A stretch of DNA of 64,000 nt from an uncultured Actinomycetota bacterium (GCA_963796315.1 CAWCLH010000020.1:1121879-1185878), one strand, 5' to 3'; counted from the stretch's first letter, positions 12,311 to 61,786 are shown. Notes: generated from the letters alone by a model not told the origin. Made by a program: numbers and translations.

Positions 12311-12352
12311 GTCGGTCTCCCCCGGCTCGGCTACTCTCCGGGTCGCGCGGTC

Positions 12353-14099: not shown

Positions 14100-14165
14100 G
14101 ATGCCTTTCCTCCTCTGTCGCGTCGGCGCGGCGCGGCCCTGAGAGCCGCGCTCCGCCGGTCTTCA

Positions 14166-14612: not shown

Positions 14613-14615
14613 GAC

Positions 14616-14957
14616 TTACTCCTCGGGTGCGGCTTCTGCCGCCGGACGTTCACTGGTGACTGCGGCAAGCTCCGCCTCGAGCCGGACCGGCATGTACCGG
14701 ATCACGGCGTCGGTGATGCCCAGGACGCGGGTGACCTCGTCAAGGGCTTCGGCGGACGCCTCGAAGTAGATGACGTAGTAGAAGCCTTCGGTCATGTGGT
14801 CGATCTCGTAGGCGAAGCGGCGCTTGCCCCACTCGTCGACCTTGCCAAATACTCCGCCTCGGGACGTCAGGATGTCCTTGATCCGGTCGAGGATACCGGC
14901 GCGCGCGTCATCTTCGGTCTCGGCGCGCAGGATCAGCATCAGCTCATAGCTGTTCAG
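14616..14957 (-). CDS. rpsF: 30S ribosomal protein S6; likely non-ATG (CTG) start
   Basis: The listed ORF starts MLILRAETED at 14939. The upstream in-frame codons (C)TG-AAC-AGC-TAT-GAG-CTG add xNSYEL, matching the S6 N-terminus. GGAGG at 14967-14971 lies 9 nt before CTG 14957. Confidence 0.85.
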   Translation of the reverse strand: MNSYELMLILRAETEDDARAGILDRIKDILTSRGGVFGKVDEWGKRRFAYEIDHMTEGFYYVIYFEASAEALDEVTRVLGITDAVIRYMPVRLEAELAAVTSERPAAEAAPEE

Positions 14958-19492: not shown

Positions 19493-19494
19493 CC

Positions 19495-20273
19495 CTACTC
19501 GGTCCCCATCCGGTCGCGCAGCGCGCTCACCACCGTGCGGACCGCCTGCACGTAGTCCTCGGCCCGCTCGAACGGCGGCGCCTCGTCCAGGTCGGCCTGC
19601 CGGACCGCGCGGCTGTAGGGAGGCTGCCGATGATCTCGTACCCCTCGAGCATGCCGGTCACCTGCTCGCGCTCGCTCTCGTCCACCTTGTTCAGCACCAC
19701 GTACACCCGGCGGATGCCGATGTCGTCCGCCAGCTTGCGGATGGAGGCCGCCGTCCGCGCGCTGCGGGCTCCCGGCTCCACCACGACGACCATGGCGTCC
19801 ACGCCCTCGGCCGTACCCCGGCCCAGGTGCTCGATGCCCGCCTCCATGTCCAGGATCACGGCCTCCTTGCGGCGCAGGAGCAGGTGACGGATCAGGGAGC
19901 GGAGCAACACGCTCTCCGGGCAGACGCAGCCGCCTTTGCCCTCCTTCACGGTGCCCATCACCATGAGGCGGATGCCGTCCAGGCGGTAGCTCAGCTCGTC
20001 GGGGATGTCGTCCACGCGCGGGTTGATCTTGAAGAAGCCGCCCATCGTGCCCGGCTGCGCGCCGGTACGCTCCGCGATCAGCTCCTGCATGTCGGCGATG
20101 GGCACGATCGACGCGGCCACGTCGGGAGGCAGGCCGAGCGCGCTGGCGAGGTTGGCGTCAGGGTCGGCGTCGACCGCGAGTACCTGGAAGCCCTCGGCGG
20201 CCAGGATGCGGGCCATCGTGCCCGCCAATGTGGTCTTGCCGACCCCGCCCTTGCCCGTCACCGCGATCTTCAC
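19495..20273 (-). CDS. cooC: CooC/MinD-family P-loop ATPase (metallocentre maturation type), frameshift at the G run 19618-19620
   Basis: MKIAVTGKGGVGKTTLAGTMARILAAEG, VLAVDADPDANL. After EIIGSLP the alternative frame reads YSRAVRQADLDEAPPFERAEDYVQAV and stops at TAG 19495-19497, 2 nt before the next gene. Confidence 0.7.
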
Positions 20274-30847: not shown

Positions 30848-31372
30848 CTAGAGCGTCTGCAGGTACTGCACCAGCGCGCGGACTTCGCTGTCGGTCAGCT
30901 GCCAGAGCGGCATGGGAGCCTTGAGTCTGTCCCCCTCGGGATCGATACCGTCCCTGACCGCGCGAGCGAAGCTCGCTTCATCGAAGGGGGTCTGGGGCTT
31001 GCCCTCGGGGTCCCGAGGCGAGGCCAGAGTGCTCCAACGGATATCGGGCGCGGTGAAACGCCCCATCATCATGTTCACCGTCTGGCCCCGGCCGTCCCGG
31101 CCGTGGCAATCAGCGCAGGCGACGCCTCCGCCCATCATCCCCACCCCGGTGGAGCGTGGGATGGGTCTCCCACTCGCGTCCGTCCCTGTCAGGTAGATGC
31201 GTTCACCGAGTGACCCGTAGGTGCCTTGCCCCGGCGAATGCCAAGGGGAGAAACGGTACAGGGGCCCTCCCGTGGGCAGGGTGAGGGCCAGCAGCACACC
31301 CAAGGCCAGGACGCCGCCGACAATCAGGATGATCCCGGCCGTCAGTGGCCCCCGGCGTCGATAGATGGCCAT
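30848..31372 (-). CDS. Membrane-anchored mono-haem c-type cytochrome
   Basis: 174 aa with an N-terminal TM helix and haem motif CADCHG. Confidence 0.75.
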   Translation of the reverse strand: MAIYRRRGPLTAGIILIVGGVLALGVLLALTLPTGGPLYRFSPWHSPGQGTYGSLGERIYLTGTDASGRPIPRSTGVGMMGGGVACADCHGRDGRGQTVNMMMGRFTAPDIRWSTLASPRDPEGKPQTPFDEASFARAVRDGIDPEGDRLKAPMPLWQLTDSEVRALVQYLQTL

Positions 31373-32436: not shown

Positions 32437-32727
32437 GTGAAGCCTGCCCGGCGAATGAAGAGCCGGGCAGGCTTCCCAGCGCCCCGTCATTGCGCGATCC
32501 GGCCGGGGCGCGGTCGTTTTCTGGGACTCTCGCGGATGTGCACCCACCTGGGCTGCGTCGTCAAGCGGGAGACCAAAGTCGAAGAGTTCCACTGTCCCTG
32601 CCACGCGGGCGTCTTCTCCTCCACCGGGGAGGTGCTGTCTGGTCCGCCGCTTCGCCCCCTACCCCGACTGAAGCTGAGCGTGGAGGGGAACGACATGTGG
32701 GCGGACGGCTGGCAGCCGACGGACTGA
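32437..32727 (+). CDS. Rieske [2Fe-2S] domain ORF (bc/b6f-type motifs), probably N-terminally truncated
   Basis: 96 aa with CTHLGC...CPCHAG. The first ~13 codons are encoded by the terminator-like hairpin, and there is no TM anchor or N-terminal beta strands. Confidence 0.45.
   Translation: MKPARRMKSRAGFPAPRHCAIRPGRGRFLGLSRMCTHLGCVVKRETKVEEFHCPCHAGVFSSTGEVLSGPPLRPLPRLKLSVEGNDMWADGWQPTD
32439..32475. terminator. Perfect 14-bp stem hairpin, no U tract
   Basis: GAAGCCTGCCCGGC-gaatgaaga-GCCGGGCAGGCTTC, starting 13 nt after the stop of the 31929..32426 gene. Confidence 0.5.
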
Positions 32728-36521: not shown

Positions 36522-37214
36522 CTACTGCCGGGGGGTCCAAGCCTCCAGGTCGGCGGTGGCCACCACGATCTTGCCGTTCTGGTTCTGCGCCTTGATCGGG
36601 TCCGGCGGGAAGTCGGTGCAGCCGCCGGAGATGCCCTGGAGCGTGTTCAGGTCCCACTTGGTGAAACAGGTGTCGCAGACCAGGGTGTTGCCCTCGATGT
36701 GGAAGCTGTTGCTGCGGCAGGGCTCGCAGAACGATGACGCCACCACCAGGTTCCCGCTGGGCGCGACGTACGAGATCAGGGGCAGCTTGCCGCCGGTCAG
36801 ACTCTGCCATTCGCCCGGGAACGGATTGGTCCGCTGGTACTTCATCATGACCAGCTTGCTCTGCTGCACGTCGGCAGCGGAGAAGCTGGCCGAGGTGCCG
36901 CTGACGGCCAGGTCGATCGGCGTCTGGGTGATCGTGCCGCCCGCAGAGCCGCCGGTCGATGAGGCGGTGGTCACGTCGCTGACCTGCACGCCGCTCGAAA
37001 CCTGCTTGCCCGACTGCACCTTCTGGTAGCCCGCCATCCCCAGGAAGGCGACGACCGCGATGGCGGTGACGACGATGATGACCCGCTGCAGGGGGAACTT
37101 GCCCGCCTCCTCGAAGCGTTGCCGCTTGCTATCGAGGTTGTCCAGATGCGCGGGCTGGCTAGTGCGCGGACGGGCGGCCGGAGGCTTCTTCTGCTGACCT
37201 TTGGATCGACTCAC
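36522..37214 (-). CDS. DUF2318-like Cys-rich membrane-anchored protein
   Basis: GTG 37214 follows AAGGGGAGAG. One TM (VIIVVTAIAVVAFLGMAGY). C-terminal domain SSFCEPCRSNSFHIEGNTLVCDTCFTKWDL..GGCTDFPP. Confidence 0.65.
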   Translation of the reverse strand: MSRSKGQQKKPPAARPRTSQPAHLDNLDSKRQRFEEAGKFPLQRVIIVVTAIAVVAFLGMAGYQKVQSGKQVSSGVQVSDVTTASSTGGSAGGTITQTPIDLAVSGTSASFSAADVQQSKLVMMKYQRTNPFPGEWQSLTGGKLPLISYVAPSGNLVVASSFCEPCRSNSFHIEGNTLVCDTCFTKWDLNTLQGISGGCTDFPPDPIKAQNQNGKIVVATADLEAWTPRQ

Positions 37215-37299
37215 GACTCTCCCCTTACTGAGAAGTGACGACTGCTCGCTCAGCCTTCGGGGATTCCTTGTGAAGCTGCCCACGAAGACTGACGGCATT

Positions 37300-37318
37300 C
37301 TACTACGCCACATAGTAG
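37300..37318. promoter_or_regulatory. BlaI-box-like dyad CTACTAC-GCCAC-ATAGTAG
   Basis: 6 of 7 positions pair. Lies 86-104 bp upstream of the DUF2318 start. Confidence 0.5.
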
Positions 37319-37331
37319 AAGGGCAATGCTC

Positions 37332-37350
37332 CTACGACGATTTGTAGTAG
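37332..37350. promoter_or_regulatory. BlaI-box-like dyad CTACGAC-GATTT-GTAGTAG
   Basis: 6 of 7 positions pair. It is the second box of a tandem pair, 32 bp centre to centre from the first. Confidence 0.5.
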
Positions 37351-37369
37351 AGAGAGGGGAGGCGAGGGA

Positions 37370-38396
37370 TCAGTGGGTGTCGCCGGCGGGGAGACGCGTG
37401 ACCGAGTGGGTGCCGTCGTGGCAGGTGTGGGTCGGTGCCTCGCCGGGGAGCGTCACGTCGGTGAAAGCGAGGGCGCTGCCCGTGAAGGCGAACAGGAGGA
37501 CGGTCACCACCAAGACGGTCCCCGACGAGGTACCGCCGTGAGGTGACCGCCACTTGGCCGAACACGAGTCCCCGGATCCGCTCCACGACGTCGCCCTCGT
37601 CGGCGAAAGCCAGGCCGGGCGAGGTGGTGCCGGGAAGCAGGGCGCGGGCGAACTTCTGCAGGCTGGAGGCGACCACGAGCGGGTCTCCGGTCCGCCGCCT
37701 GGCGAAGTCGTCGGCGGCCAGTTCCTGTGCCCGGCGCAACCGGACGACGGCCGGACGGACGCCGGGCAGCAGCGCGAAGGTCGCGACAAAGGTCCGCGCG
37801 ACCAACAGGATCAGGTTGTCCCGAGCGATAAGATGTCCCTCCTCGTGGGCGAAGACCGCCTGCACCTCCTGCTCATCCAAGCCGGACAGCAGACCGGACG
37901 AGATCACGACCCGGGGCCGCAGGGTGCCCATCGTGTACGAACGCGGGACCTCGTCGTCCACCACATAGGTCCGCCCGCGGAGACCGGGAGGCAGCGGACC
38001 TCCGTACAGGACCCCCTCTTCGAGGGCACGGGCCACGTAGCGGGAAGAGGAGTGGACTTGGCTGAGCGCTGCATAGACCGCGACGGCGATCAGCCCGAGA
38101 AGGATCCCCCCCATGAAGAAGGAGAAGGTGGCGTTGGCCCACCCGGGAAGGGCTCGCTGGCAGGCGACGGCGACCTTGCAGACCAGTCCGGTCCGATCGA
38201 GGACGGCATGGGGCAGGTAGCGCAGGAACACCGCGACCAGCAGCAGCAACGTGGCCAGAGCGGCGCCGGAGATGGACGCGAGGTAGGTCAGGACAAGCGC
38301 GCGGGGAGCCAGCCGAGACTCCAGGAACCGGCGGACCAGCCAGGGCCCGGCCAGCAGGAGGGCGTAGGTCAGCGCGAGGGTCAGGCCGACGATGAC
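37370..38396 (-). CDS. M56-family (BlaR1-like) membrane metalloprotease without a penicillin-binding sensor domain; frameshift at the C run 37520-37523; start unresolved
   Basis: HEEGH zinc motif in QAVFAHEEGHLIARDN. After SRRYLVG the alternative frame gives TM TVLVVTVLLFAFTGSALAF and the tail TDVTLPGEAPTHTCHDGTHSVTRLPAGDTH (stop 37370-37372). TM1-like coding (VIVGLTLALTYALLLAGPWLV) extends to ~38396 with no in-frame ATG/GTG/TTG. Confidence 0.7.
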
Positions 38397-38812
38397 TCCC
38401 GCTCCTGGCGCATCTGCTGGATGATGTCGGCGAGGACGTCGAGTTGGCCCGCATCCTCGTTGGTGAGACTCTCCACGAAGTGAGTGAGGACCGGCCGGTT
38501 GACCGAACCGAACAGCCCGCTGACGACGGTCTTGACCACTCCGGTACAGAAGGCGTCTCGAGTCTGCACCGGCTCGTAGATGTAGGCCCGGCCTTCCTGA
38601 CGGCGGCGCAGCAGCGCTTTCTCCGCCAAGCGACTCATCACGGTCATCACCGTGGTGTAGGCGATCTCACGCCGTTCCAGCAGGCACTCGTGCACCTCCC
38701 GGACCGACGCCGATCCGAGATCCCACATGCACTCCATGATCTCGGCCTCCAGGTCGCCGAGGACCTGCCTCAGCCCCTGGCTCCCGATATTCAGGCTCAA
38801 CGGTTCGTCCAT
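38381..38812 (-). CDS. blaI: BlaI/MecI/CopY-family winged-helix repressor
   Basis: ATG 38812 follows AGGAGG. LGDLEAEIMECMWDLGSASVREVHECLLERREIAYTTVMTVMSRLAEKALLRRRQEGRAYIYEP. No C-terminal CxC copper motif. Confidence 0.85.
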   Translation of the reverse strand: MDEPLSLNIGSQGLRQVLGDLEAEIMECMWDLGSASVREVHECLLERREIAYTTVMTVMSRLAEKALLRRRQEGRAYIYEPVQTRDAFCTGVVKTVVSGLFGSVNRPVLTHFVESLTNEDAGQLDVLADIIQQMRQERESSSA

Positions 38813-38841
38813 GCAGGTCCCTCCTGGTGCGACGGCACGCA

Positions 38842-38858
38842 TACTACCAAACGTAGTA
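38842..38858. promoter_or_regulatory. BlaI-box-like dyad TACTAC-CAAAC-GTAGTA (probable autoregulatory site)
   Basis: Perfect 6+6 inverted repeat, 30-46 bp upstream of the blaI-like start codon. Confidence 0.6.
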
Positions 38859-38930: not shown

Positions 38931-39074
38931 CTACTGCGGCAGCTGCATCTCCCGTTCCAGCCGCTCGATCTCCTTGCGAAGGCCCGTCTGGCGCCGGGCG
39001 ATAGAGATCATGTAGGCCCCGAGGATCACCCAGATGACCGCGTAGCCGGCGAACAGAAAACCCAAGTCGTTCAC
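38931..39074 (-). CDS. ccmD: CcmD-like small membrane protein (47 aa)
   Basis: GTG 39074 gives VNDLGFLFAGYAVIWVILGAYMISIARRQTGLRKEIERLEREMQLPQ. Lies 10 nt after ccmC. Found by hand translation. Confidence 0.6.
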   Translation of the reverse strand: MNDLGFLFAGYAVIWVILGAYMISIARRQTGLRKEIERLEREMQLPQ

Positions 39075-39084
39075 AACGACGCTC

Positions 39085-39831
39085 CTATCGCATCAGGTGT
39101 TGATGACGAAGACGCTCGATCCTTGAGGTCAGATCCATCTGGCGGTAGCGCACGATCAAGAGGTACGCGTAGACGAGCGTGATGGCGAACAGCGAGAACA
39201 TCAGCACGAGCGTCATCCGCGAATCCAGGTTGATGGCGTTCTCGGTGATGACGGTGGGGTGGATGGTCCGCCACCAACGCACCGACATGAAGACGATGGG
39301 TACGTCCACCCACCCCACGATGCCGAAGACCGCCGCCACCCGGGCCGTCTTGTGCCCGGGCTGCGACGCGGACCGCAGCATGAGGTAGGCCACGTAGATG
39401 AACCACAGCACCAGGGTGGTGGTCAGACGCGGGTCCCACGTCCAGTAGGCGCCCCAGATGGGCCGGGCCCACAGGGGACCGGTGATCAGGGTGACGGTGG
39501 TGAAGACGACGCCGATCTCGGCCGACGCGGCCGCGATCCGGTCGTAGCGCAGGTCCTTCTTGATCAGGTAGAGGATGCTCGCGATGAACACCACCGTGAA
39601 GGAGGGCCCCAGGGCGACCCAGGCGCTGGGGACGTGGAAGTAGAAGATGCGCTGCACGTCGCCCATCTGGGCCTCGGTCGGCGCGTAGAGCAGCGCCCCG
39701 TAGAGGGCGATGACGACGGACACCAGGGCCGCGACGCCCAGAGCGTCCAGCCAGAGTGAGCCGCCGGTGAGGCCGCGGGTCCCGGTCGAGGGCAGGCCGC
39801 GGTCGAGGGTCTGGTCGTGTGCCATGCTCAT
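39085..39831 (-). CDS. ccmC: Haem exporter protein CcmC
   Basis: 248 aa with the WWD motif WGAYWTWDPRLTTTLVLW. Confidence 0.9.
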   Translation of the reverse strand: MSMAHDQTLDRGLPSTGTRGLTGGSLWLDALGVAALVSVVIALYGALLYAPTEAQMGDVQRIFYFHVPSAWVALGPSFTVVFIASILYLIKKDLRYDRIAAASAEIGVVFTTVTLITGPLWARPIWGAYWTWDPRLTTTLVLWFIYVAYLMLRSASQPGHKTARVAAVFGIVGWVDVPIVFMSVRWWRTIHPTVITENAINLDSRMTLVLMFSLFAITLVYAYLLIVRYRQMDLTSRIERLRHQHLMR

Positions 39832-40505
39832 TCCTCGAGGACGAAGTCGAAGGTCATGATCGAGAGTGCCAGGAAGATCACGTCATAGACTACCAGCAGT
39901 AGGAGCCAGGAGGAGCCCTCGCCCAGCGAGCGCCCGTCCAGCACGTGCCCCGACGACTTGGCGGCCGCCAGGATCACCGGCACCATCACCGGGAACAGCA
40001 GGATGGACAAGATGACGTCACGGGCCTTGAGCCCCACCGACACTGCGGAGAACAGGGTGCCCACGCTGCTGAACCCGATGGTGGCCAGCACCAGGATCAA
40101 GCCCAGCGGGGCCACGGTGCGGGCCAGGTCGACGTTGTAGAGCACCGCGAAGAAGAAGAACACCACGACGCCCATCAGCAGCAGGAAGACGAAGTTGCCC
40201 AGGAACTTGCCCAGGTAGATCACGCTGCGGTCCACCGGGCAGAGCAGCAGCCCCTGCAGGCAGTCGTTCTCCTTCTCCGAGGCGAAGGAACGGTTGAGGC
40301 CCAGGATGCCGGCGAAGGTGAACGCGGCCCAGAGCACCCCCGGCTTGACCAGGTTCTCCTCCCGCAGGCCCGGCTCGATCCCGAAGTTGAAGATCAGGAT
40401 GACCAGGAAGCCGAAGAGAAGCATGGAGAAGACCATCTCGCGGGTGCGCAACTCCCCCACGATGTCCTTCCAGGCGATGGCCCACGCCCGGTTCAGGAAT
40501 CCCAT
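39828..40505 (-). CDS. ccmB: Haem exporter permease CcmB
   Basis: ATG 40505 gives MGFLNRAWAIAWKDIVGELRTREMV. Six TM helices. Overlaps ccmA and ccmC. Confidence 0.85.
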   Translation of the reverse strand: MGFLNRAWAIAWKDIVGELRTREMVFSMLLFGFLVILIFNFGIEPGLREENLVKPGVLWAAFTFAGILGLNRSFASEKENDCLQGLLLCPVDRSVIYLGKFLGNFVFLLLMGVVVFFFFAVLYNVDLARTVAPLGLILVLATIGFSSVGTLFSAVSVGLKARDVILSILLFPVMVPVILAAAKSSGHVLDGRSLGEGSSWLLLLVVYDVIFLALSIMTFDFVLEE

Positions 40506-41264
40506 CGGTAGTCCTTCCCCACGTACTCGAAGTACGTCTGCTCGAAGGCCGCCCGGTCGATCTGGCCGATAGGCCGACGGAACACGGTCTTCCCCAGCAC
40601 CTGAATGGACACCTCGTCGCACATCTCGAGCCCCTGCTCCAGGTTATGCGTGGTCAGGACGATGCTCCGTTCCCCCGTGTGCAGGGTCTCGAGGACGCTG
40701 CGCAGCATGCGGGAGGCATGCTGGTCCAGGCCGGTGTAGGGCTCGTCCAGGAACATGATGTCCGGTTCGTGCAGCAGGGCGCGCGCGATGGACAGGCGTT
40801 GCTGCATGCCCCGAGAGTACGTGGCCACCCGGTCCTCCATGCGGCCGTAGAGCCCGACCTCCTCCAGCAGCTTCGTCGCCCGGTCTTCCAGGTCGGCGAC
40901 GCCGTACATCGTGCCGTAGAAGGTCAGGTTCTCGAAGGCGGAGAGGCTCGGGATAGAGGTAGGTATTGTGCGAGATGACCCCGATGCGACGGCGGAGGAT
41001 GTCCGCTCCCTGCACCACGTCGGTCCCCGCCAGCAGCACCTGACCTTCGGTGGGCTTGATCTGGGTCGAGAGGACCTTGATCAGCGTGGTCTTGCCGGCA
41101 CCGTTCGGTCCGAAGATGGTGAGGAACTTACCCTGCTCCAGCTGAAGGTCCAGACCGCGAAGCGCCGCGAAATGGCCAAAGTACTTCCATAGGCCCCGGA
41201 CCTCGATGGCGAGGTCCGGGGTGGGTGGGCCGGGCTCCAGATTGTCAGGGGCAGCGACGGCCAA
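40493..41264 (-). CDS. ccmA: Haem exporter ATPase CcmA, frameshift near 40949-40952
   Basis: TTG 41264 lies 2 nt after the upstream stop. FGPNGAGKTTLIKVL. After ISHNTYLYP the alternative frame gives SLSAFENLTFYGTMYGVADLE...YSRGMQQRLSIARALL..MFLDEPYTGLD. Confidence 0.8.
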
Positions 41265-41266
41265 GG

Positions 41267-41879
41267 TCAGGCGGTCACCTCGGCGCCGCAGCCTCCGCAG
41301 AAGCGCGCCCCCGCCTTCAAGGGGGCGCCGCACTCGTCGCACGCGGCCCCCGCGTGCCCGTTGGGAGAGGTCTCCATCACGGCGACGGCCGACTGCTCCA
41401 GCAGGTGGTCGCCGCAGCCTGCGCAGAAGCGGGCCCCCGCCGGGTTGAGGTGGTCGCAGGCCAGGCAGACCAGCTGCCCGTCGTCCGCCGGGGCAGCTCG
41501 CCGCGGACGCTTCGGAGACGCGGCCGCTTGCTTCTGCGCGACAGCCGGCCGAGGCTGCCGCGCCGCGGTCTGCGTGGCCCGGGGCCGGCTCTTCGCCTTG
41601 GGCGCGGGCCGCTCGGCTTCGGCGATCGCTTCCAGGATCTCCACGGCGTTGGCCCGGTACTTGAGCGTCGAGCTCCCGGAAGTCGGACTCGGACAGTTTG
41701 CCCGTCCGGAAGTCGAACTCGAGCTCCTTGAGCGCCGAGTAGGTCGACTCCTTCCGCCGGTGCAGCTCCTCGACCTCCTCGGGAAGCTCCATCTCTTCTT
41801 CGTCGGTCCACTGGCGCAGCAGCGGATAGCCTACGAAGGCCACTGCCGCCAGCGCCATGAGGATCTTGATCAGCATCAC
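41267..41879 (-). CDS. CcmI-like N-terminal module fused to a double zinc ribbon, frameshift near 41668-41671
   Basis: MMLIKILMALAAVAFVGYPLL...YSALKELEFDFRTGKLSESDFREL. After the shift, TLKYRANAVEILEAI...LVCLACDHLNPAGARFCAGCG...ACDECGAPLKAGARFCGGCG. Confidence 0.6.
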
Positions 41880-41922
41880 GGTCGTTCGTCTCCTCGGTCT
41901 CGCCGTCGCGGACGCCTGGGTC

Positions 41923-42419
41923 TCAGTCGAAGTCCTTCAGCTCGTCCTCCATCTTGTGGACGAGCTCATCGCGCACCGGGGACTGCAGCTCCACCTGTCC
42001 CTCGGGGGTCGCGGCCACGAGCGCCGCGCGGCGCTTGGCCCAGCCGCCGATCAGAAAGTAGATGGCGATACCGCCGCCGATCAGGACGGCGAAGGGGATC
42101 AGCCAGGCGGCCAGGTTGAAGCCGCTCTTGGTGGGCGCGGCCAGGACACGGTCGCCGTATTTCGTGACGTACGAGTCGATCACCTGCTGAGGCGTCTCGC
42201 CCGCCGCCAGCTGGGCGTGGACGTCCTGCTTCGCAGGGATGCCCCACTCGCAGTTCTGGTGCGGGCACTCCTTGAGCACCGCGTTGCAGCCGCACAGGCA
42301 CATGATCTTCGAGGTCACCGACGAATCCGCAGGCGCCGCCTGTCGCCGGCGCGGTCCCCAGAAGGCCGGCGCCGAGCGCTAGGAGGAGCACCGCCGGGCC
42401 GAGCCACAGGCGCCGAAAA

Positions 42420-42430
<11 letters not shown>
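41923..42430 (-). CDS. ccmH: CcmH/NrfF-like protein, frameshift near 42333
   Basis: ATG 42430 overlaps the ccmF stop by 11 nt. The signal peptide [29 protein letters not shown] is in one frame. The mature part VTSKIMCLCGCNAVLKECPHQNC...AAWLIPFAVLIGGGIAIYFL is in another (ORF 41923..42318). Confidence 0.7.
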
Positions 42431-44423
<1,993 letters not shown>

Positions 44424-44526
44424 GTGGTTGGTTCCTCCGTGTCACCTGGGTCTGGGATCCGCCAGTGCCGACGTCCTCGCCGTCCGCCGACGAAACGACG
44501 AGACGAACGGCGCGACGGCACCTCTT

Positions 44527-44973
44527 CTACTTGCCGGTCGACGTGCCCGTCGGCGCCTCGGACTTCGCCTTCGCCTCGTACTTGGACGGGCACTTGGCGA
44601 GCAGATCGACCGAGCTGAACTGCTTGCTCTGCAGGTAGTCACCGGTCACGACCACCTCGGGGGCGGGCTCGTCGGCACGCGGCTCCCGGAAGGTGTCGGG
44701 CACCGGGCCGGTGTGCGACACGAGCAGGACCTTATTCGGGGAAGCCTTGTCGTGGATCTGGAAGGTGATGGGCTGGCCCACGCCGCCCTTCTTGATACTG
44801 CCGACGACCAGGTCCCCAGAGACCTTGACGTTCTGGGACGGGCCCTTGGCCTGAAGCTCGGTGACGGTGTAGTAGTAGACCATGTTCCCCCGCACCGCGT
44901 AGAACGCGAGGGAGGCGATGGCGGCCACGATCACCAGGCCGCCGATCACGAACTTCAGCTTCTTGTTGCCCAT
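44527..44973 (-). CDS. ccmE: Haem chaperone CcmE, Cys-type (CxxxY) variant
   Basis: ATG 44973 follows GGAGGAAGG. TM anchor, and VDLLAKCPSKYEAK where canonical CcmE has HxxxY. Confidence 0.85.
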   Translation of the reverse strand: MGNKKLKFVIGGLVIVAAIASLAFYAVRGNMVYYYTVTELQAKGPSQNVKVSGDLVVGSIKKGGVGQPITFQIHDKASPNKVLLVSHTGPVPDTFREPRADEPAPEVVVTGDYLQSKQFSSVDLLAKCPSKYEAKAKSEAPTGTSTGK

Positions 44974-45025
44974 ATGCGCCTGTCCTTCCTCCATGGATCC
45001 TCCGACCCGCATCGACCGTACAGGA

Positions 45026-45502
45026 TCAGTACAGCAGTCGCTCGAGGCCCGTCCCACTCATCACCCGGTTGGTCACTTTCTCCGGGAACAGTTTTTCCGG
45101 GCATTTTACCAAAATCTGCGTAGCCTCGAAGACGCCGCCCTTGCCCGTGGAGCCCGTCACCACCACCTCTTGGAAGGGAGCGAGGCGTTCGGGGTAGGGC
45201 CCGGTGTAGACGACGTCCATGCGGCCGCCCTTCGATCCCTCGAGGACGAAGCGGACCTCCTGCGTCGACGGGTCCTGGTTCAGGCTGCTCTCGGCCACCC
45301 GGCCGCCGACCCGGACATTGGACAGCGTACCGGCCGCCTTGGCCTCGTCGACGGTCTGGTAGAAGTCTCCACCGACGGTCAGGAAGAGCACCAGCCAGAG
45401 CAGGGCCAGCACGATGACCACGATACCGACGATCAGCTTCCACCTGCGCCACCAGGGGGTCGAGACGGGGGGCTGCAGGTCCTGGGTCTCGGTCACCGTC
45501 AC
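45026..45502 (-). CDS. Second CcmE-like paralog (C-P-E-K-L, no Tyr at +4)
   Basis: GTG 45502 follows AGGAG. TM WKLIVGIVVIVLALLWLVLFL. FYQTVDEA, and TQILVKCPEKLFPEK at the haem-binding position. Confidence 0.7.
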   Translation of the reverse strand: MTVTETQDLQPPVSTPWWRRWKLIVGIVVIVLALLWLVLFLTVGGDFYQTVDEAKAAGTLSNVRVGGRVAESSLNQDPSTQEVRFVLEGSKGGRMDVVYTGPYPERLAPFQEVVVTGSTGKGGVFEATQILVKCPEKLFPEKVTNRVMSGTGLERLLY

Positions 45503-45507
45503 TCCTG

Positions 45508-46182
45508 TCAGTCGGCTTTCGCGGCTTGGAGACCGCTCTCGACCAGCTCTCGCAGGCCGGCATCTCCTAGGCCCGGCTCGATGGCGAGCCAGTACAGGTC
45601 CCTGCCGACGCGGAAGTAGTAGTGCTTCTGCCCCATGCCGTCCAAAGCCTGGACCTCGACGCCCTGCGCCGTCATCGTCTGCGGGTGTGTGAAGGGCGAC
45701 GTGCCGGCGGCGATCTTGGTCTTCATGCGCTCCATAAGGGCTTCGGCATCCTGGAGCCTCACCGATCGGCTGACCCACAGGGTCGCAGCCCCGCCGGTGC
45801 CGTAGGTGGCCAGCCAGGCCTCGTCCAGCCCGGCGCCCAACCCCTTGCCGTGGAGTTGCTCCACCTGGATGATGGCCTGCTCGCCGTCCAGGTACTCGCT
45901 CAAGGACAGTCCCGCGATGGTTCTGGGCACCGTCGCCGCCACCCCCGCCACCGGCGGCTGGATGGTACTCGGGCTGCCCGCCGGGTCGCCGAGCGTGGAG
46001 GTCGTCCCGGAGGCAGCGGTCTGCACAGCCGCCGGGGGAGCGTCCGCCGTCTGACCGCACCCCAACAGCACCAGGGCCAGGACCAGGAGGAGCACGGACG
46101 CCCCGACCCGCACCGGCGCCGCGAAGACCGAGGCGGCGATCCGCCCTCTCCACTGTCCGCCTCCTGCCCGCATGTGGGTCAC
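45508..46182 (-). CDS. Uncharacterised lipoprotein, first gene of the ccm operon
   Basis: 224 aa with lipobox LVLLGCGQ. No family recognised. 5 nt upstream of the second ccmE. Confidence 0.65.
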   Translation of the reverse strand: MTHMRAGGGQWRGRIAASVFAAPVRVGASVLLLVLALVLLGCGQTADAPPAAVQTAASGTTSTLGDPAGSPSTIQPPVAGVAATVPRTIAGLSLSEYLDGEQAIIQVEQLHGKGLGAGLDEAWLATYGTGGAATLWVSRSVRLQDAEALMERMKTKIAAGTSPFTHPQTMTAQGVEVQALDGMGQKHYYFRVGRDLYWLAIEPGLGDAGLRELVESGLQAAKAD

Positions 46183-46263
46183 CTCGACCTCGTCATCGAC
46201 TCCAGCCGGACCGGCTGGAGAAGCTCCGCTTGTGAAAGCCGTCGCGTAGTGGCGAGCGGATTT

Positions 46264-46280
46264 TACTACTCCGCGTAGTA
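46264..46280. promoter_or_regulatory. BlaI-box-like dyad TACTAC-TCCGC-GTAGTA
   Basis: Perfect 6+6 inverted repeat in the 165-bp gap, 82 bp upstream of the lipoprotein/ccm operon start (46182). Confidence 0.6.
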
Positions 46281-46347
46281 GGCGTCAACGTCGAGCGGGC
46301 GGAACGTCGAGCGGCGCCGTCCTGGCCGCCGCTCGACCGGGACCCGC

Positions 46348-48382: not shown

Positions 48383-49069
48383 TTACTGAGTGGTCGTCGG
48401 GGTGGTGGCGCCGTGCGGGTTCGATCCGGTGGAACCACCGGAACTCGGGTTGTCCATCAGGCTGATGAACTGCGCCGCCAGCGAGCCCAGCTCGCTCTTG
48501 GGATCGATAGCCGCGACCTTCTCCCACGTCGCCTTCGCCTTGTCGCGCTCGTTCGTGGAGAAGTACACGATGGCCAGGCTGTACAGAGCGGCCTGGTTCT
48601 TGGGATCCTGCTGGCTCAGCGCCAGCAGTTGCTTCTCGGCTTCAGCGCTCTTGCCCGCGTTGAAGTCGAGCATCGCCAGCCCCACCTTGGCATCGACGTT
48701 CTTCGCGTCGACCGCCAGAGCTTCATTGAACTTCTTCGAGGCGTCGGCCGTCCGGTTGGCTTCCACGTAGGCTTGGCCGAGACTCAAGAGGGTGGCGACG
48801 TCCTTGGGGTTCTTCTTGTAGGCGGCCTCGAGGGTCTTCAGCGCCTCGGTGTTCGCCGGTGCCGCAGTCGCCGTGGTCTCTCCGCTGATGGGGACATGAC
48901 CGGGCGGGACGGTCGCATCGGGCGAGATGGGAGGAGCGGATGCCGACGAATTGGTACCCGCGGCGACGTCAGTGCTATTGCCGTTGTTGTTGTTGCTGCT
49001 CAACACCACGATGAGCACGACGACCACCACCGCGGCGACGCCGATAGCGATCAGGTTCTTCCTATTCAT
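48383..49069 (-). CDS. Membrane-anchored TPR-repeat protein (NrfG/CcmI C-terminal-like)
   Basis: ATG 49069 follows GGAGGAAAGG. One TM, then TPR-like LSLGQAYVEANRTADASKKFNEALAVDAKN and LYSLAIVYFSTNERDKAKATWEK. Confidence 0.65.
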   Translation of the reverse strand: MNRKNLIAIGVAAVVVVVLIVVLSSNNNNGNSTDVAAGTNSSASAPPISPDATVPPGHVPISGETTATAAPANTEALKTLEAAYKKNPKDVATLLSLGQAYVEANRTADASKKFNEALAVDAKNVDAKVGLAMLDFNAGKSAEAEKQLLALSQQDPKNQAALYSLAIVYFSTNERDKAKATWEKVAAIDPKSELGSLAAQFISLMDNPSSGGSTGSNPHGATTPTTTQ

Positions 49070-49270
49070 GCGGGCTTGTTCCTTTCCTCCACGACGAGGC
49101 TTGTGAAGCGGGGTACGAGACGCCGGGAATGCTACCTGATGCGACGTCTGCTGCCAAGAGAACCCCATGCCCCGGCACGCGTGCCGCGCCGCTTCCCTGC
49201 GGCCTTCGTTCGGACGCGGGAAAGGCGGGACGAGTTCCCGACGTCGGGACGTCTCACACCGCGTATACTC

Positions 49271-49351: not shown

Positions 49352-49546
49352 GTGAAGGTCGCGCAGGTCGATTTCGAGAAGTGTCAGGCGTGTAGGGAAT
49401 GTCCGCCCAAGAAGGCCTGCCGCACCAAGGCACTCATCAAGATGGGGCCTGACGAGGAAGCCATCGTCAAACCGTCGGACTGCATGGGCTGCGGCGACTG
49501 CGTCGAACCTTGCCCCTACGGCGCCGTCAGCATCAAGGAGAGCTAG
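49352..49546 (+). CDS. Small 4Fe-4S ferredoxin
   Basis: 64 aa with CQACRECPPKKAC and CMGCGDCVEPCP. Confidence 0.8.
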   Translation: MKVAQVDFEKCQACRECPPKKACRTKALIKMGPDEEAIVKPSDCMGCGDCVEPCPYGAVSIKES

Positions 49547-51236
49547 ACCCTCCCTTCGCCGGCGATCGTCGGGACACGCCGTCGCGCCGTCGGGAAGTGT
49601 CGCGGCCCGCGGCGGACGCGAGGATCAACTCCAGCAGTCTGGATTCGTCCACGCGGCCCGGTTCCGCCGGGACTCCATCCACCACCACCAGCGGCACCTG
49701 GCCGACCTGATAGCGCTGCACCAGCTCCGGGAAATCAGACGCCGCCACCATGTCGACGGTGATCTTCGGCGAGGCCAAAGAGAACTGGTGAGCCAAGCGC
49801 ACCACCCCGGGGCAGACCGGGCAGGTGGACGTGGTCAGCACTTCCAGGCGCACCGGCACCCGAAGCCGCGACAACGCGCTGCGAGTCTCGTCGGACACCT
49901 CGCCGGGCGCCTCGGCAGACAGATCGACCAAAGCGTCGACCAGGGGGCCGAACTCATAGCCTTCCGGCACTCCGAAGAAGCGGAGGCGAGCAGCCTCACC
50001 CGGACGCGCCGCCAACGTGGCCGGGATGCGCTCGACCCCGAGCTCCTCCGCGAGCTCCTTCTCCGTCAGCATGTCGTGCACGTCCAGCTCCAGCTTGGCC
50101 GACAACGAGGCGAGGTCCTCGACCAGCTGCCGAGCCTCCCGGCACGCTTCCGTCGGGAGCGAGCGTCCGGTGCCGGCCAGCTGGGTCAGATGGACGAGGC
50201 GCACCGGTCCCGCCAGCTTCTCCTCGAAGAGCGCGCTGAGCTCCTTCTTGTCCTCATCGGCCAACGCCTGCGGTGCGGCCCGACCGCCGGACGCAGCCGT
50301 TCGCTCGGCAGTACCGGAAGAAGCCGTCCCCCGGACGGCCGGCCTCAACAGCTGGAGCGCCTGGAACGCGGCGATCTGGCCCTGCCCCACCGCCTTGGCG
50401 ATCTGGTAGGGCTCGCCCGTGGCATCGCCGGCGGCCAGCACGCCGGGCACCGAGGTCTGCAGGGAGGCGTCGACGACGATATGTCCGCCCTCCACCTCCA
50501 AGCCCTCCAGCAGGTCGTGAGGGGCGACGCTGCGCCGGTAGACGAAGACTCCGTCGACGACCACCTCTTCGTCGGGATGGAGCACGTGGACCTTCCCGGA
50601 CTCGTCCCGGAAGAGCCGGCCGGGACGCTTCCGCGCCAGCACCCGCACGCCGGCCGGCAGGTGGTAGGGGCCGCCGTAGAGGGGAAGGTAGACCAGGGAT
50701 GAGGCGAAGTCCTGGGCCAACACCGTGGCCTCCTCCTCCCCTTCCTCCAAGTAGCTGATGAAGGCCAGGTCCTTTCCGGCGAACAGACGGCCGTCGCAGC
50801 TGACACAGTAGGCCACGCCCCGGCCGACCAGCTCGTCCTCACCCTCCAGGTCCGGCTCCCGATAGAGCCCGTTCGCCAGGATGACCACTTTGGCTTCGTA
50901 CATGTCCTTGTCGGTGAAGAGGACCAGTCGGTCGTCCTCCCGGTAGATCTTCGAGACCTTCTCCCGCAGCAGGGGCACGTTGAACCGCTCGAGATGCTCG
51001 ATGAAGGCGGACGCGAGCCCCTCCCCGCTCGTGAAAGTGAACCCGGGATAGTTGGGGACCTTGGGCGCCTTCCGCGTGTACGAGAACGGGCGCTGCCCGT
51101 CCATCACCACCACGCTCTTCTTCCGGTTGGCCAGATTGATGGCGGCGGAGATGCCGGCCGGCCCCGCACCGACCACCACCACCTCGTAGTGGGAGGACTT
51201 CTCGGCGGGATCGGCGCCGGTATTGGGATCGCTCAC
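49533..51236 (-). CDS. Thioredoxin-reductase-like flavoprotein fused to a PDO/glutaredoxin-like double thioredoxin-fold domain
   Basis: GTG 51236 follows GGGAGG. VVVVGAGPAGISAA, redox CVSC, AAGDATGEP. The second dinucleotide motif reads LAFISYLEEGEEEA instead of GGGxSAxEEA. C-terminal TSTCPVCPGVVRLAH...GQVPLVVVDG. Confidence 0.75.
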   Translation of the reverse strand: MSDPNTGADPAEKSSHYEVVVVGAGPAGISAAINLANRKKSVVVMDGQRPFSYTRKAPKVPNYPGFTFTSGEGLASAFIEHLERFNVPLLREKVSKIYREDDRLVLFTDKDMYEAKVVILANGLYREPDLEGEDELVGRGVAYCVSCDGRLFAGKDLAFISYLEEGEEEATVLAQDFASSLVYLPLYGGPYHLPAGVRVLARKRPGRLFRDESGKVHVLHPDEEVVVDGVFVYRRSVAPHDLLEGLEVEGGHIVVDASLQTSVPGVLAAGDATGEPYQIAKAVGQGQIAAFQALQLLRPAVRGTASSGTAERTAASGGRAAPQALADEDKKELSALFEEKLAGPVRLVHLTQLAGTGRSLPTEACREARQLVEDLASLSAKLELDVHDMLTEKELAEELGVERIPATLAARPGEAARLRFFGVPEGYEFGPLVDALVDLSAEAPGEVSDETRSALSRLRVPVRLEVLTTSTCPVCPGVVRLAHQFSLASPKITVDMVAASDFPELVQRYQVGQVPLVVVDGVPAEPGRVDESRLLELILASAAGRDTSRRRDGVSRRSPAKGGSSSP

Positions 51237-51416
51237 GACGACCTCCCATGGAGCGACACGGACCGGGTGACCTCGGCACAGACCTCGCGCACACGGCAGC
51301 ACCGGTCCTGAACAGACGATGGGGCGTCGCCCCTTCGAGCGACGCCCCATGACTGTACCCACTTTCGAGCCAACTAACGGCCGACCCTCCGCTGCCCTCA
51401 GACGGCTCGTCCGGCG

Positions 51417-51965
51417 TCAGGCATCGAACGAGTCGAGTTCCTCCTGCACGCGGCGACGGTACTCCGAGTCCGGCGCGTCGGGCCCGGACGAAGGAGTGGC
51501 AACCGGCACCGGCGTGGACGAGGCGGGGCCGCGCCAGCGCCTGATGGCCACCAGCACCACGCCTCCCGCCAGCGCTACGCCCACCGGGGGAAGCACGTAG
51601 GCCAGCCAGTTGAATCCGCTGGCCCGGGGCTTGGTCAGGATCTTCTGCCCGTACTGGGCGATGAAGACGTCCAGCACCTGCTGCTCCGTGTTGCCCTGAG
51701 CAAGCAGGCTACGGACCTGTGCCTTGGCCAGGACGACCTCCTCGCTGAGGTGAGCGTCGGACAGCGGCTGCGTCCAACAGCAGGGGCCCATCAGCTTGGT
51801 CTCGAGCCTCTTCGCTGTCGCTTCTTGCTCCGGCGACAGGGCTACGTCCACCGCCTCCTGCGCGGCGGCCGGAGCCGCCGCCACCAGGCTCGCGAACAGG
51901 ATCAAGCACAGGACGAAGATGCCCCGAGGTCTCACGGCGCCCAACGGGCGCCCTAGTGCGCTCAA
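51417..51965 (-). CDS. CcmH/NrfF-like protein with a vicinal Cys pair
   Basis: 182 aa with signal peptide and LMGPCCWTQPLSDAHLSEEV where CcmH has LRCxxCQxQSxxDS. C-terminal TM WLAYVLPPVGVALAGGVVLVAI. Confidence 0.65.
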   Translation of the reverse strand: MSALGRPLGAVRPRGIFVLCLILFASLVAAAPAAAQEAVDVALSPEQEATAKRLETKLMGPCCWTQPLSDAHLSEEVVLAKAQVRSLLAQGNTEQQVLDVFIAQYGQKILTKPRASGFNWLAYVLPPVGVALAGGVVLVAIRRWRGPASSTPVPVATPSSGPDAPDSEYRRRVQEELDSFDA

Positions 51966-52514: not shown

Positions 52515-52841
52515 CTAGGCTAGGCCGAACTCTTTCTCGTAGTCCTTCTGGCTGCGCGCCCCGACGATCTGACTCTTGACCTTGCCGGCCTCGAACAGGA
52601 TGACCGTGGGAATGCTCATGATGCCGTAGCGAGCGGCGATCTCCTGATTCTCGTCGACGTTGAGCTTGGCGACCGTCACCTTCTCGTTGTGCTCTACGGC
52701 GAGCTTCTCGAGGACCGGACCTACCATTTTGCACGGGCCGCACCACGGCGCCCAGAAGTCGACCACCACAGGGCCCTCCGCCTGGATGACCTCTTTGTCG
52801 AATGACTGGCTGTCCAGATCCTGCACCATGCCACTACCCAT
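52515..52841 (-). CDS. trxA: Thioredoxin
   Basis: ATG 52841 follows [30 protein letters not shown]. Confidence 0.93.
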
Positions 52842-52974
52842 GACATCCTCTCCTTCTGCTGACGACTCCCTACGGTTTACCCAGCGGAACAGGCGGCTCC
52901 GCGCTCCACAGCCCACGCCCTCTGTATCGACCCTCGGGTCGCTCGGGCTCGGTTCCCGGACGATCGCATCGTTT

Positions 52975-52990
52975 ATACCTGCGGGGGTAT
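52975..52990. promoter_or_regulatory. CsoR-operator-like box ATACCTGCGGGGGTAT
   Basis: Lies in the divergent gap between the trxA operon (start 52841) and the DUF1405 gene (53078). Confidence 0.45.
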
Positions 52991-53077
52991 TCTAGCAAGC
53001 CGACGACCGACGCGACAAGGCTCGCCGACCAGTTGGTCCAAACCGCCCTCCGACCGCGTCGGCTATACTGGCCGGCC

Positions 53078-59576: not shown

Positions 59577-60350
59577 GTGCAGACGATGTCGGAGCGGTTG
59601 GAGGGCACGGCGGCGCTGATCACGGGCGCGAGCAGCGGTATCGGCGAGGCGACGGCGCGGGCGCTCGCCGCGGAGGGAGCGGCCGTCGCCCTGGTGGCGC
59701 GGCGCAGGGAACGGCTCGAGACCCTGGCTCAGGAGCTCGAGTCCCGGGGTGGACGGGCCCTCGCCATCCAAGCGGACGTCACCGACCGAGACCAGGCGGT
59801 GGCCGCCGTCGACCGCGCGGCCCACGAGCTGGGCCGCCTGGACATCGTCATCAACAACGCGGGCGTGATGCTCCTGGGCCCCGTCGAGGGGGCGCCGCTC
59901 GAGGAGTGGGAGCGGATGGTCCAGCTCAATGTCCTCGGGCTGCTCTACGTCGCTCATGCCTCCCTGCCCCGCCTGCTCCACGCGGCGGAGGGCCCGCCCC
60001 GGCAGGTCGCGGACATCGTCAACATCAGCTCCGTGGCCGGCAGGGTCGCGCGCGCCGGCTCGGGCGTCTACAACCTGACCAAGTTCGGCGTCGTGGGCTT
60101 CACGGAATCGCTGCGGAAGGAAGTGACCGGCCGTCACGTACGGGTCGCCGTGGTGGAGCCCGGGGCCGTGAAGACCGAGCTGATCGAGCACGTGCGCCCG
60201 GAGATCCGGGCGGCGTCGTCCGCCCGCTTCGCGAACATGGAGCGATTGGAGGCCGAGGACATCGCCGACGCGATCACGTACGTCGTCACCCGCCCCCGGC
60301 GGATGGCGGTCAACGAACTCCTGGTACGCCCCACCGAGCAGGAGGGGTGA
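59577..60350 (+). CDS. Short-chain dehydrogenase/reductase
   Basis: 257 aa with TGASSGIGEATA, NNAG, and YNLTKFGVVGF (YxxxK). Confidence 0.88.
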   Translation: MQTMSERLEGTAALITGASSGIGEATARALAAEGAAVALVARRRERLETLAQELESRGGRALAIQADVTDRDQAVAAVDRAAHELGRLDIVINNAGVMLLGPVEGAPLEEWERMVQLNVLGLLYVAHASLPRLLHAAEGPPRQVADIVNISSVAGRVARAGSGVYNLTKFGVVGFTESLRKEVTGRHVRVAVVEPGAVKTELIEHVRPEIRAASSARFANMERLEAEDIADAITYVVTRPRRMAVNELLVRPTEQEG

Positions 60351-60452
60351 GGGGTCGACGGCCCGCGGTCCGGTCGACCCGACCCTTCGCCCGCGGGCCC
60401 GAGAGAGGGTGGGCGGCCCGTCCGGGCCGCCCACCGGAGGACATCGACAGGG

Positions 60453-61587
60453 CTACTGGTCGGTGAGGGTCTTCAGGAACGCCACGATTGCGGCTTCCTG
60501 TACCGGCGGCAGGTGCAGGTTGCCCACACTCGTGTCGAGGTTGGCGGAGACCTCCGGAGCCGGCCAGCCCGGCGCCGGGGACGTCGCGGGTGTTGTAGAA
60601 GTGGACGATCTCCTCGAGGCTCTTGAAGTAGCCGTTGTGCCCGTAGGCCTTGACGAACTTCTTGTTCGGCCGCATGTCCACGTTGCGCAGGGTGGGCACC
60701 TTCATGCTTGCCGATCTCGGATCTAGACCGTCCTCCGGATAGCCGGCACCCTTCAGGAAGGCGCCCAAGCCCTTGTCGACCCAGTCCGCTCCAGCGGGGT
60801 TCCAAGCAGTCGTAGAAGGGGTTCACGGGGTTGGGCGGCACCCCGAGGTTGGCGTAGGTGAAGTCCGTGAAGAGCGGCGGGACGTGGCAGGTGGCGCACT
60901 TGGCCTTGTGGGTGAAGAGCTCGAGGCCCATACGCTCCTGGCCGGTCAGCTTGGCCTGGCCCTTAAGCCAGGAGTCGTACTTCGAGGTGTACTGAGCTGA
61001 CCTCACTCGAACGCTCGTAGGCGGCGATGGCCCGCCCGATGACGCTCGTACTGCTGTTCGGTGGTGGTCGCATCGGCGGCAGTGCAGGCCTGCATGAAAG
61101 GTCGTTGTAGCTGGACGCGAGCACCTTGTCGATCACGGCCTGCGCACTCGCATTGTTCTGTTCCAGCGGGTTCAGGAACGGGCCCTGGGCCTGCTCGGCC
61201 AGAGGATCGCCGAGGACCCCCCGGTGGCCCGGCCGTCCCAGAACATGCCCCCGACCCACTCCGTGCCGTAGTGCAGGACCGGGCTGTCGCCCGCGTATGC
61301 CGCCGCCGGCGGCTTGCGGTTGCCGTATCGGCCCGCGACGGCGCCCTCGTAGACCGCTCCGCCGATGTTGATGGCCTCATCCGGCCCGGTGTAGCCGACG
61401 TCAGGTCCGTGGCAGGCCGCACAGGCCTGGCCGGGTGGGTCGGACAGGTTCGTGTCGAAGAACAGGTCCTTGCCCAGTTGCTCCTGGTGTCGGTCAGCGG
61501 CGCCGCCGCGGCCGCTCCCGCGACGGTGCCGAACAGGACCACCGTCGCGACCAGCAGCAGGATCAGCCTCGTTCGTGATGACTCCAT
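60453..61587 (-). pseudogene. Di-haem cytochrome c peroxidase (CcpA/MauG family) broken by about 6-7 frameshifts
   Basis: ATG 61587 follows AAGGAGGG, with a signal peptide. LFFDTNLSDPPGQACAACHGP, FWDGRATG, LGDPLAEQAQGPFLNPLE, KCATCHVPPLFTD, MKVPTLRNV, YGHNGYFKSLEEIVHFYN and LPPVQEAAIVAFLKTLTDQ (TAG 60453-60455) are spread over all three frames. Confidence 0.65.
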
Positions 61588-61786
61588 CGGTCCCTCCTTC
61601 TCTCGCGCCCGTGTCGGGATGCGGCGACCGCCCACCCCTCGTAAGGCTATCGTAAACCCATAGCGCCGCGAACCATAGCTTCATGACGCACTGGGGCCGC
61701 TGGCGAGGGGAACGGGAGCGGCGATCGAGAAGTGGGCGCCAGAGCAGACTGTCGACTAACAGCAGCGGAGAGCGGCGTAGTACCGG

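Follow-up and report, generated by a model that had tools for sequence, protein, structure and literature searches.

The stretch of DNA analysed here, 64,000 nucleotides from an uncultured Actinomycetota bacterium (GCA_963796315.1 CAWCLH010000020.1:1121879-1185878, the window from now on), carries on its minus strand, between positions 38,931 and 46,182, a cluster of ten co-directional genes that includes the components of a System I pathway for cytochrome c maturation (Ccm). Gene identities were assigned with Pfam and NCBIfam, and the matches agree with the series listed in an initial annotation made from the sequence alone: a lipoprotein, two CcmE paralogues (CcmE1 and CcmE2), CcmF, a CcmH-like protein, a small CcmI-like zinc-ribbon protein, CcmA, CcmB, CcmC and CcmD (Table 1). 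The gaps and overlaps that it had described are also found, from 103 nt between ccmE2 and ccmF to an overlap of 13 nt between ccmA and ccmB, while the stop of the lipoprotein gene lies 5 nt from the start of ccmE1. A sigma-70-like match upstream of the lipoprotein gene may, judging from its consensus, be the promoter of the operon; two such matches were found, against 0.8 expected in shuffled sequences. The G+C content is about 67% throughout the window, with the operon equal in composition to its flanks, and this comparison of base composition gave no sign of a recent horizontal transfer. The neighbouring UPF0182 gene and the rpsF-ssb-rpsR-rplI-dnaB run show that the actinobacterial setting is real, and the Gram-positive-style context that had been claimed for the cluster is correct.

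Table 1. Features of the window (positions counted from its first nucleotide; bits are profile scores).
Feature	Position	Strand	Evidence and remarks
Promoter match, sigma-70-like	46260-46288	-	TTGACG-17-TAAAAT; upstream of the lipoprotein gene; consensus match only
Lipoprotein	45508-46182	-	Opens the cluster; lipobox LLGC; without a Pfam family
CcmE1 (paralogue 1)	45026-45502	-	PF03100 68.6 bits (cut-off 24.6); membrane anchor and OB fold; VKCPEKLF
CcmE2, Cys-type haem chaperone	44527-44973	-	PF03100 67.4 bits (cut-off 24.6); LLAKCPSKY
CcmF, haem lyase subunit	42420-44423	-	PF16327 202.8 bits; PF01578 126.9 bits
CcmH variant 1	41923-42430	-	PF03918 62.3 bits (cut-off 25); signal peptide, one transmembrane helix
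CcmI-N-like/double-zinc-ribbon small membrane protein	41267-41879	-	PF12773 39.6 bits; TIGR03142 18.7 bits (below cut-off 29.3)
CcmA, ABC ATPase	40493-41264	-	PF00005 121.8 bits; TIGR01189 129.6 bits (cut-off 131.6)
CcmB, ABC permease	39828-40505	-	PF03379 111.2 bits
CcmC, haem supplier to CcmE	39085-39831	-	PF01578; TIGR01191 156.8 bits (cut-off 186)
CcmD, 47 aa, alternative family	38931-39074	-	TIGR04391 50.3 bits (cut-off 24)
CcmH variant 2	51417-51965 (about)	-	PF03918 79.2 bits; motif LMGPCCWTQPLSD
Membrane-anchored tetratricopeptide repeat (TPR) protein	48383-49168	-	TPR_19 65 bits; PF23914 (TPR_CcmH_CycH) 40.3 bits (cut-off 42)
Zinc-ribbon membrane protein, 414 aa	46348-47592	-	
BlaI-like repressor, BlaR1/M48-like peptidase and FtrD-like membrane protein genes	36522-38842	-	Directly downstream of ccmD
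Pyr_redox_2-Thioredoxin_3 fusion	49536-51416	-	
Thioredoxin	52518-52991	-	
Membrane-anchored monohaem cytochrome c	30848-31372	-	PF00034
Rieske-domain open reading frame, small	32437-32727	+	
Di-haem CCP/MauG-like protein	60313-61786 (~60.3-61.8 kb)	-	c-type cytochrome; frameshifted
DnaB replicative helicase with intein	10505-12352	-	PF14890 (Intein_splicing) inside the DnaB_C domain
purA	5417-6590	+	Frameshifted
Further frameshifted regions	16005-16629, 13858-14649, 18285-19495	-	

The residues that handle haem point to the type of system encoded. In CcmE2, the segment LLAKCPSKY aligns with VLAKHDENY of Escherichia coli CcmE (chain 8ce8_E), in such a way that Cys128 corresponds to the haem-binding His130 and Tyr132 to Tyr134. 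Cys128 also aligns with the Cys of the Cys-type CcmE of Desulfovibrio vulgaris (2kct), and it therefore occupies the haem-binding position. Thus, the replacement of HxxxY by CxxxY that had been read from LAKCPSKY is upheld, and the cysteine is not misplaced, which was the doubt left by the initial annotation. CcmE1, which is 30% identical to CcmE2, has its Cys aligned with that of CcmE2, with Leu replacing the Tyr at position +4. The only proteins with a WWD motif found at 23-64 kb of the window are CcmC and CcmF. The former matches E. coli CcmC (7f02_C; E = 1.5e-31), and the alignment takes in the WWD motif, WGAYWTWDPRLT, as well as the His residue on either side of it (in FHVP and TIHP); the latter matches CcmF from Thermus thermophilus (6zmq_A) with E = 2e-109, keeps the WWD motif and has four aligned His positions, at IHPV, FLHS, SVHSF and TVHVG. 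A separate group of proteins (P0058, P0076, P0094, P0096, P0097, P0102 and P0113) represents single CcmE sequences with VLAKCPS[RKH]LEN, hence with Cys and no Tyr, and is distinct from the CcmE1 of the window.

The initial annotation had regarded the presence of CcmH beside a Cys-type CcmE as an anomaly. Reportedly, the original definition of System I* by Allen et al. in 2006 included the absence of CcmH. A later study (Stevens et al. 2011, PMC3601427) found that about one third of the bacteria with Cys-CcmE have CcmH and that lacking it does not define the system; its absence is still stressed in subsequent work, for archaea (PMC9084895). The databases yield a similar picture. All of the best 120 CcmE homologues, which come from Thermoleophilia/Actinobacteria metagenome-assembled genomes (MAGs), Acidobacteriota, Chloroflexi, NC10, Eisenbacteria and others, have Cys at the haem-binding position, most of them within [LM]AKCPSKY, and hits to the pattern [LM]AKCPSKY[ESQ] in species-representative genomes numbered at least 600 stretches, with the motif confirmed in at least 579 of these genomes. 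Gene context was examined in the best 80 loci of these at least 600 matches, plus four others (L001-L004), by searching with the proteins of the window and with profiles made from the hits. A CcmH homologue was present in the cluster at 57 of the 80 loci and, discounting eight others that end too early, in 57 of 72 informative ones. The usual gene order is E-F-H-I-A-B-C-D, which predominates in Acidobacteriota, Latescibacterota, Gemmatimonadota and other phyla, and which was recovered independently when the genes of L001 and L003/L004 were tabulated by Pfam. True absence of CcmH was observed in some Acidobacteriota with the order E-F-I-A-B-C-D, where ccmF adjoins the CcmI-N-like gene (L011, L013, L015, L017, L027, L032 and L033), and in Deferribacteres with the order E-F-A-B-C-D, where ccmF adjoins ccmA (L040 and L056); therefore, at least three Cys-type sub-architectures coexist. 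Since literature, sequence databases and gene context agree, the combination of CcmH and Cys-CcmE is not unusual, and the premise that Cys-CcmE systems should lack CcmH is out of date.

Nor is the arrangement exceptional within its own clade, as had been supposed. The closest relatives are MAGs labelled Actinomycetota, Actinomycetes or Thermoleophilia, whose CcmE proteins are 55-63% identical to that of the window. Four of five actinobacterial relatives (L001 and L005-L007; L008 has no CcmH in the cluster) possess the cluster in full, down to the lipoprotein and the tandem CcmE1-CcmE2, and it is therefore standard for the clade. In the Thermoleophilia MAG L001 the synteny runs from the lipoprotein gene to ccmD and on into both flanks, one with the BlaI-like, BlaR1-like and FtrD-like genes and the other with the zinc-ribbon membrane protein, Lgt, the TPR protein and the Pyr_redox_2-Thioredoxin_3 fusion. 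The CP[DES]KL motif of CcmE1 is kept in all five relatives. Among the loci examined, homologues of the lipoprotein occupy the same position only in L001 and L005-L008; the family, which comprises 661 clusters at 50% identity and lacks a Pfam model, is linked to ccm genes only in the actinobacterial clade. It is only in the five actinobacterial relatives that the lipoprotein and the Tyr-less CcmE1 (CPEKL) are conserved as a pair, and the C-terminal domain of the former shows conserved LHGK, SPF and GMGQxHYYF motifs. As only four species representatives of Actinomycetota occur among the closest loci (best 80 of at least 600 matches), System I probably occurs in few members of the phylum, the cultured Actinomycetes of which use System II. 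A literature search on cytochrome c maturation in Thermoleophilia gave no hits, and a broader one on the phylum brought up only unrelated work on soil ecology.

The functions of CcmI seem to be split between two genes. The CcmI-N-like gene of the cluster has a homologue in 70 of the 84 loci, with an intact orthologue in L001. The gene for the TPR protein, also present in L001, lies 2 kb upstream of the cluster, and its product may be the half of CcmI that binds apocytochromes. Both CcmI-like parts score just under threshold, yet they are conserved in synteny. The CcmI-N-like protein and the 414-residue product of the neighbouring zinc-ribbon gene are both single-pass membrane proteins ending in cytoplasmic FCxxCG-type zinc ribbons; the latter, which is duplicated in L001, also carries a large extracytoplasmic domain that matched no known family.

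The most distinctive component is CcmH. The initial annotation had noted two CcmH-like proteins, and both indeed contain the PF03918 domain, but the one with the GPCCW motif is encoded outside the cluster within which it had been counted (Table 1). Both have a signal peptide and a C-terminal transmembrane helix, as in canonical CcmH; the signal peptide of variant 1 becomes visible after correction of a frameshift (see below) and is also seen in the orthologue P0142. In variant 1, the LRCxxC motif is replaced by CLCGC-x6-C-x4-C. Variant 2 has a vicinal pair, PCCW, which is kept as PCC[WY] in the homologues P0146-P0152, and the surroundings of its gene show synteny with L085. Among 59 CcmH proteins from Cys-CcmE loci, 54 have a five-Cys cluster, C-x-C-x(1,2,4)-C-x(6-8)-C-x(1,3,4)-C, usually in the form CxCGC; two (L044 and L048) have CxxC-x7-CxC, the first Cys being absent, and the canonical RCPVC is found in only three, all of them Gemmatimonadota proteins from loci whose gene order differs. 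Four Cys with the spacing C-x(1-4)-C-x(6-8)-C-x(1-4)-C are kept in all 56 variant sequences, and the first and third Cys align with the canonical CxxC pair. An AlphaFold model of variant 1 reached a mean pLDDT (predicted local distance difference test) of 76.5, with only 63-71 over the Cys motif, and its top Foldseek match in the PDB was Pseudomonas aeruginosa CcmH (2HL7), a weak one (E = 1.2, target TM-score 0.50), as was the sequence match to 2hl7 (E = 0.68). The modelled fold is consistent with the three-helix bundle of CcmH, although this does not amount to proof.

A literature search, in which the primary System I* papers (Allen 2006, Goddard 2010) were not included, found no description of a five-Cys CcmH subclass. 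It is proposed very tentatively, and with low confidence, that the Cys-CcmE operons of at least eight phyla pair with a distinct, apparently undescribed CcmH subclass, in which C-x-C-G-(x0-3)-C-x6-8-C-x1-4-C replaces LRCxxC. If this were true, the five-Cys subclass and the PCC[WY] paralogue of the clade would imply a thiol or metal chemistry unlike that of the E. coli model, which would serve apocytochrome handling or the release of the Cys-haem link, and the clade would possess two more accessory components, still unstudied, in the conserved lipoprotein and the CcmE paralogue without Tyr. Several related contexts were also observed. The gene for variant 2 stands between those for a thioredoxin and a Pyr_redox_2-Thioredoxin_3 fusion. 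In L085 the neighbourhood of the PCC[WY] protein is conserved, with an inserted NiFe hydrogenase, and in L087 a five-Cys CcmH occurs together with LAKCPSKY, a context that is anecdotal. Another organism (L086:1-6447), likewise an anecdotal case, encodes in a related operon a CcmH with CPVC and two extra Cys, a CcmG-like redoxin, a zinc-ribbon protein, a 555-residue cytochrome c, CcmA and CcmB; there, the CcmG-like gene goes with a CcmH that retains CxxC.

All these observations can be integrated by assuming that the cluster is, very probably, a functional System I operon of the Cys-CcmE (System I*) type from an uncultured Thermoleophilia-like actinomycetote, of a kind that is normal for its lineage and for many phyla. 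By homology with the systems of E. coli, Desulfovibrio and Methanosarcina, from which the order of the steps is inferred, CcmABCD would load haem onto the membrane-anchored CcmE by means of the WWD domain and the His ligands of CcmC, and CcmE would hold it by Cys128, with no histidine involved. Holo-CcmE would then hand the haem to the lyase CcmF, whose putative partners are the membrane-anchored CcmH variant and the split CcmI (the N-like module in the operon and the TPR module upstream). Finally, haem would be attached to CxxCH apocytochromes, for which the monohaem cytochrome c and the di-haem CCP/MauG-like protein are the candidates in the window; the former and the small Rieske-domain reading frame near it are possible respiratory-chain components depending on this Ccm system. 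CcmH would act in thiol chemistry through its closely spaced Cys, the CGC pair in variant 1 and the vicinal CC in variant 2.

A number of facts weigh against this proposal. CcmA (marginally, and its gene adjoins ccmB), CcmC, CcmF (with the CcmF/NrfE models of NCBIfam) and the CcmI-like parts all score under NCBIfam or Pfam curated cut-offs. The CxxC motif is absent from both CcmH proteins of the window, while LRCxxC defines the canonical redox activity of CcmH. Within 23-64 kb there is no CcmG/TlpA-like or CcdA/DsbD-like reductant pathway. Neither ResB, CcsA and CcdA/DsbD nor a membrane-anchored thioredoxin was found among the genes scanned there, and the only thioredoxin-type genes are those for a cytoplasmic-type TrxA and the Pyr_redox_2-Thioredoxin_3 fusion, so that the claimed lack of CcmG is borne out for that region only. 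The covalency of haem binding by Cys-CcmE is itself disputed, being covalent in Desulfovibrio desulfuricans and non-covalent in D. vulgaris (PMC3884852). Finally, single-base frameshifts interrupt three of the ten genes, a matter overlooked when the operon was called complete, even though all ten genes are present as had been claimed.

These frameshifts lie at about 42343 in ccmH, 41665 in the zinc-ribbon gene and 40945 in ccmA. In ccmH, which begins with an ATG at 42430, one extra base leaves the signal peptide out of frame with the remainder, and in ccmA one base is inserted at gagCctctcc. It might be argued that they are real and that the operon is a decaying, pseudogenised remnant in a lineage now using System II, given that all three fall inside 1.5 kb and that the gene call of the public record for CcmH is itself a truncated product of 126 residues (P0121). 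Nevertheless, an analysis of G+C content at third codon positions (GC3) by frame revealed the same type of break all over the window, with high GC3 carrying on in the shifted frame past every break. In this way, purA is split at about 6354 into two fragments that lie in different frames and match consecutive PF00709 positions (19-330 and 333-408), the pirin gene occupies three frames, and splits also affect ssb, the di-haem CCP/MauG-like gene and a LOR/SDH-like gene, among many more. Moreover, an intact CcmH of 169 residues with its signal peptide (P0142), which stems from a near-identical, short-read assembly, falls in the same 90% cluster as P0121, and the long-read MAG L001 has its frameshifts elsewhere, in ccmE1 and ccmF, its orthologues of the zinc-ribbon gene and ccmA being intact. 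Because purA, pirin and ssb are also broken, P0142 is intact and the breaks of L001 differ, the three ccm frameshifts are assembly indel errors and not pseudogenisation, which was rejected on their distribution over the whole window; decay of the operon is thus extremely improbable. The source record looks like an unpolished long-read assembly, and gene-level claims made from the window therefore need frame correction.

With the genes taken as intact, it could be asked whether they form a general maturation system. A specialised, NrfEFG-like lyase set, devoted to an unusual haem-binding motif, would fit the best NCBIfam match of CcmF, which is TIGR03145 (NrfE), the weak match of CcmH to NrfF (TIGR03147) and the existence of two CcmH and two CcmE paralogues. 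Yet TIGR03145 gives 455 bits, far under its cut-off of 927, the cluster contains a complete CcmABCDE module for haem delivery, and among the genes scanned at 23-64 kb NrfA was not found and there is a single CcmF-like gene. A lyase of the Nrf type was rejected on these scores and on gene content, and is highly unlikely. Much the same holds for the notion of an exceptional hybrid, in which a System I* with Cys-CcmE would have retained or acquired CcmH against expectation, and in a lineage not supposed to have System I. The scarcity of Actinomycetota among the closest loci, the use of System II by cultured Actinomycetes and the emphasis of papers from 2006 and 2022 on the absence of CcmH speak in its favor; however, the co-occurrence was already reported in 2011, CcmH accompanies Cys-CcmE in most informative loci and the full cluster is common to the relatives. 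This idea is refuted, the arrangement being neither unique nor unreported, and it was left with a very small probability. An alternative that concerns the mechanism of CcmH only deserves greater, if still minor, weight: the four or five Cys might constitute a structural metal site or fixed disulfides, in which case CcmH would merely dock CcmF and would not reduce apocytochromes. The invariance of four Cys in the variant sequences and the lack of a CcmG/CcdA partner nearby are in line with this possibility. Against it, the domain is extracytoplasmic, as deduced from its signal peptide and positive-inside transmembrane helix, and Zn-Cys4 sites are unusual in that compartment; besides, two of the Cys align with the canonical CxxC pair and the confidence of AlphaFold over the motif is only moderate. 

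Among the other genes of the window, the BlaI-like, BlaR1/M48-like and FtrD-like genes that follow ccmD are syntenic in L001, and the gene for the DnaB replicative helicase contains an intein (Table 1).

The favored reading, a working Cys-CcmE System I, makes the cluster another example of a known and widespread variant, whose supposed anomaly was already in the literature. It also places a complete system of this kind in a deep, uncultured lineage of Actinomycetota, the cultured members of which use System II, and it draws attention to the CxxC-less CcmH subclass that goes with Cys-CcmE in the majority of the sampled operons. If this association were general, it would provide a natural experiment on the role of CcmH and on the resolution of the Cys-haem adduct of CcmE.

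The System I* of Desulfovibrio and archaea is said to have been described by Allen et al. in 2006 and by Goddard et al. in 2010. The cluster resembles it (Methanosarcina acetivorans included, PMC9084895) in having a CxxxY-type CcmE, here CPSKY, with Cys at the position of His130, together with CcmABC(D), CcmE and CcmF, and in the absence of CcmG from the cluster. It differs by the addition of CcmH (PF03918), the CcmI-N-like gene, the Tyr-less CcmE paralogue and the lipoprotein, and its order, E-F-H-I-A-B-C-D, contrasts with the E-F-A-B-C-D of the Deferribacteres loci L040 and L056. The cluster also resembles the CcmH-containing Cys-CcmE systems of Stevens et al. (PMC3601427) and the operons of Acidobacteriota, Latescibacterota and Gemmatimonadota (L003, L009-L084), with which it shares the gene order, the LAKCPSKY CcmE, the five-Cys class of CcmH, the small CcmI-N-like gene and the alternative CcmD of 47 residues. 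In comparison with these, the actinobacterial clade has the extra upstream lipoprotein and CcmE1, a double zinc ribbon fused to the CcmI-N-like protein, the CcmH spacing C-x6-C-x4-C and a PCCW CcmH paralogue encoded elsewhere. The canonical System I known from E. coli and Rhodobacter, CcmABCDEFGH(I), is made of homologous components, and CcmC and CcmF of the cluster retain its WWD domains and His ligands. In contrast to that system, the CcmE of the window has Cys in place of His, its CcmH proteins have CxCGC...C...C or PCCW instead of LRCxxC, CcmG was not found at 23-64 kb, CcmD belongs to TIGR04391, and CcmI is apparently split into two genes.

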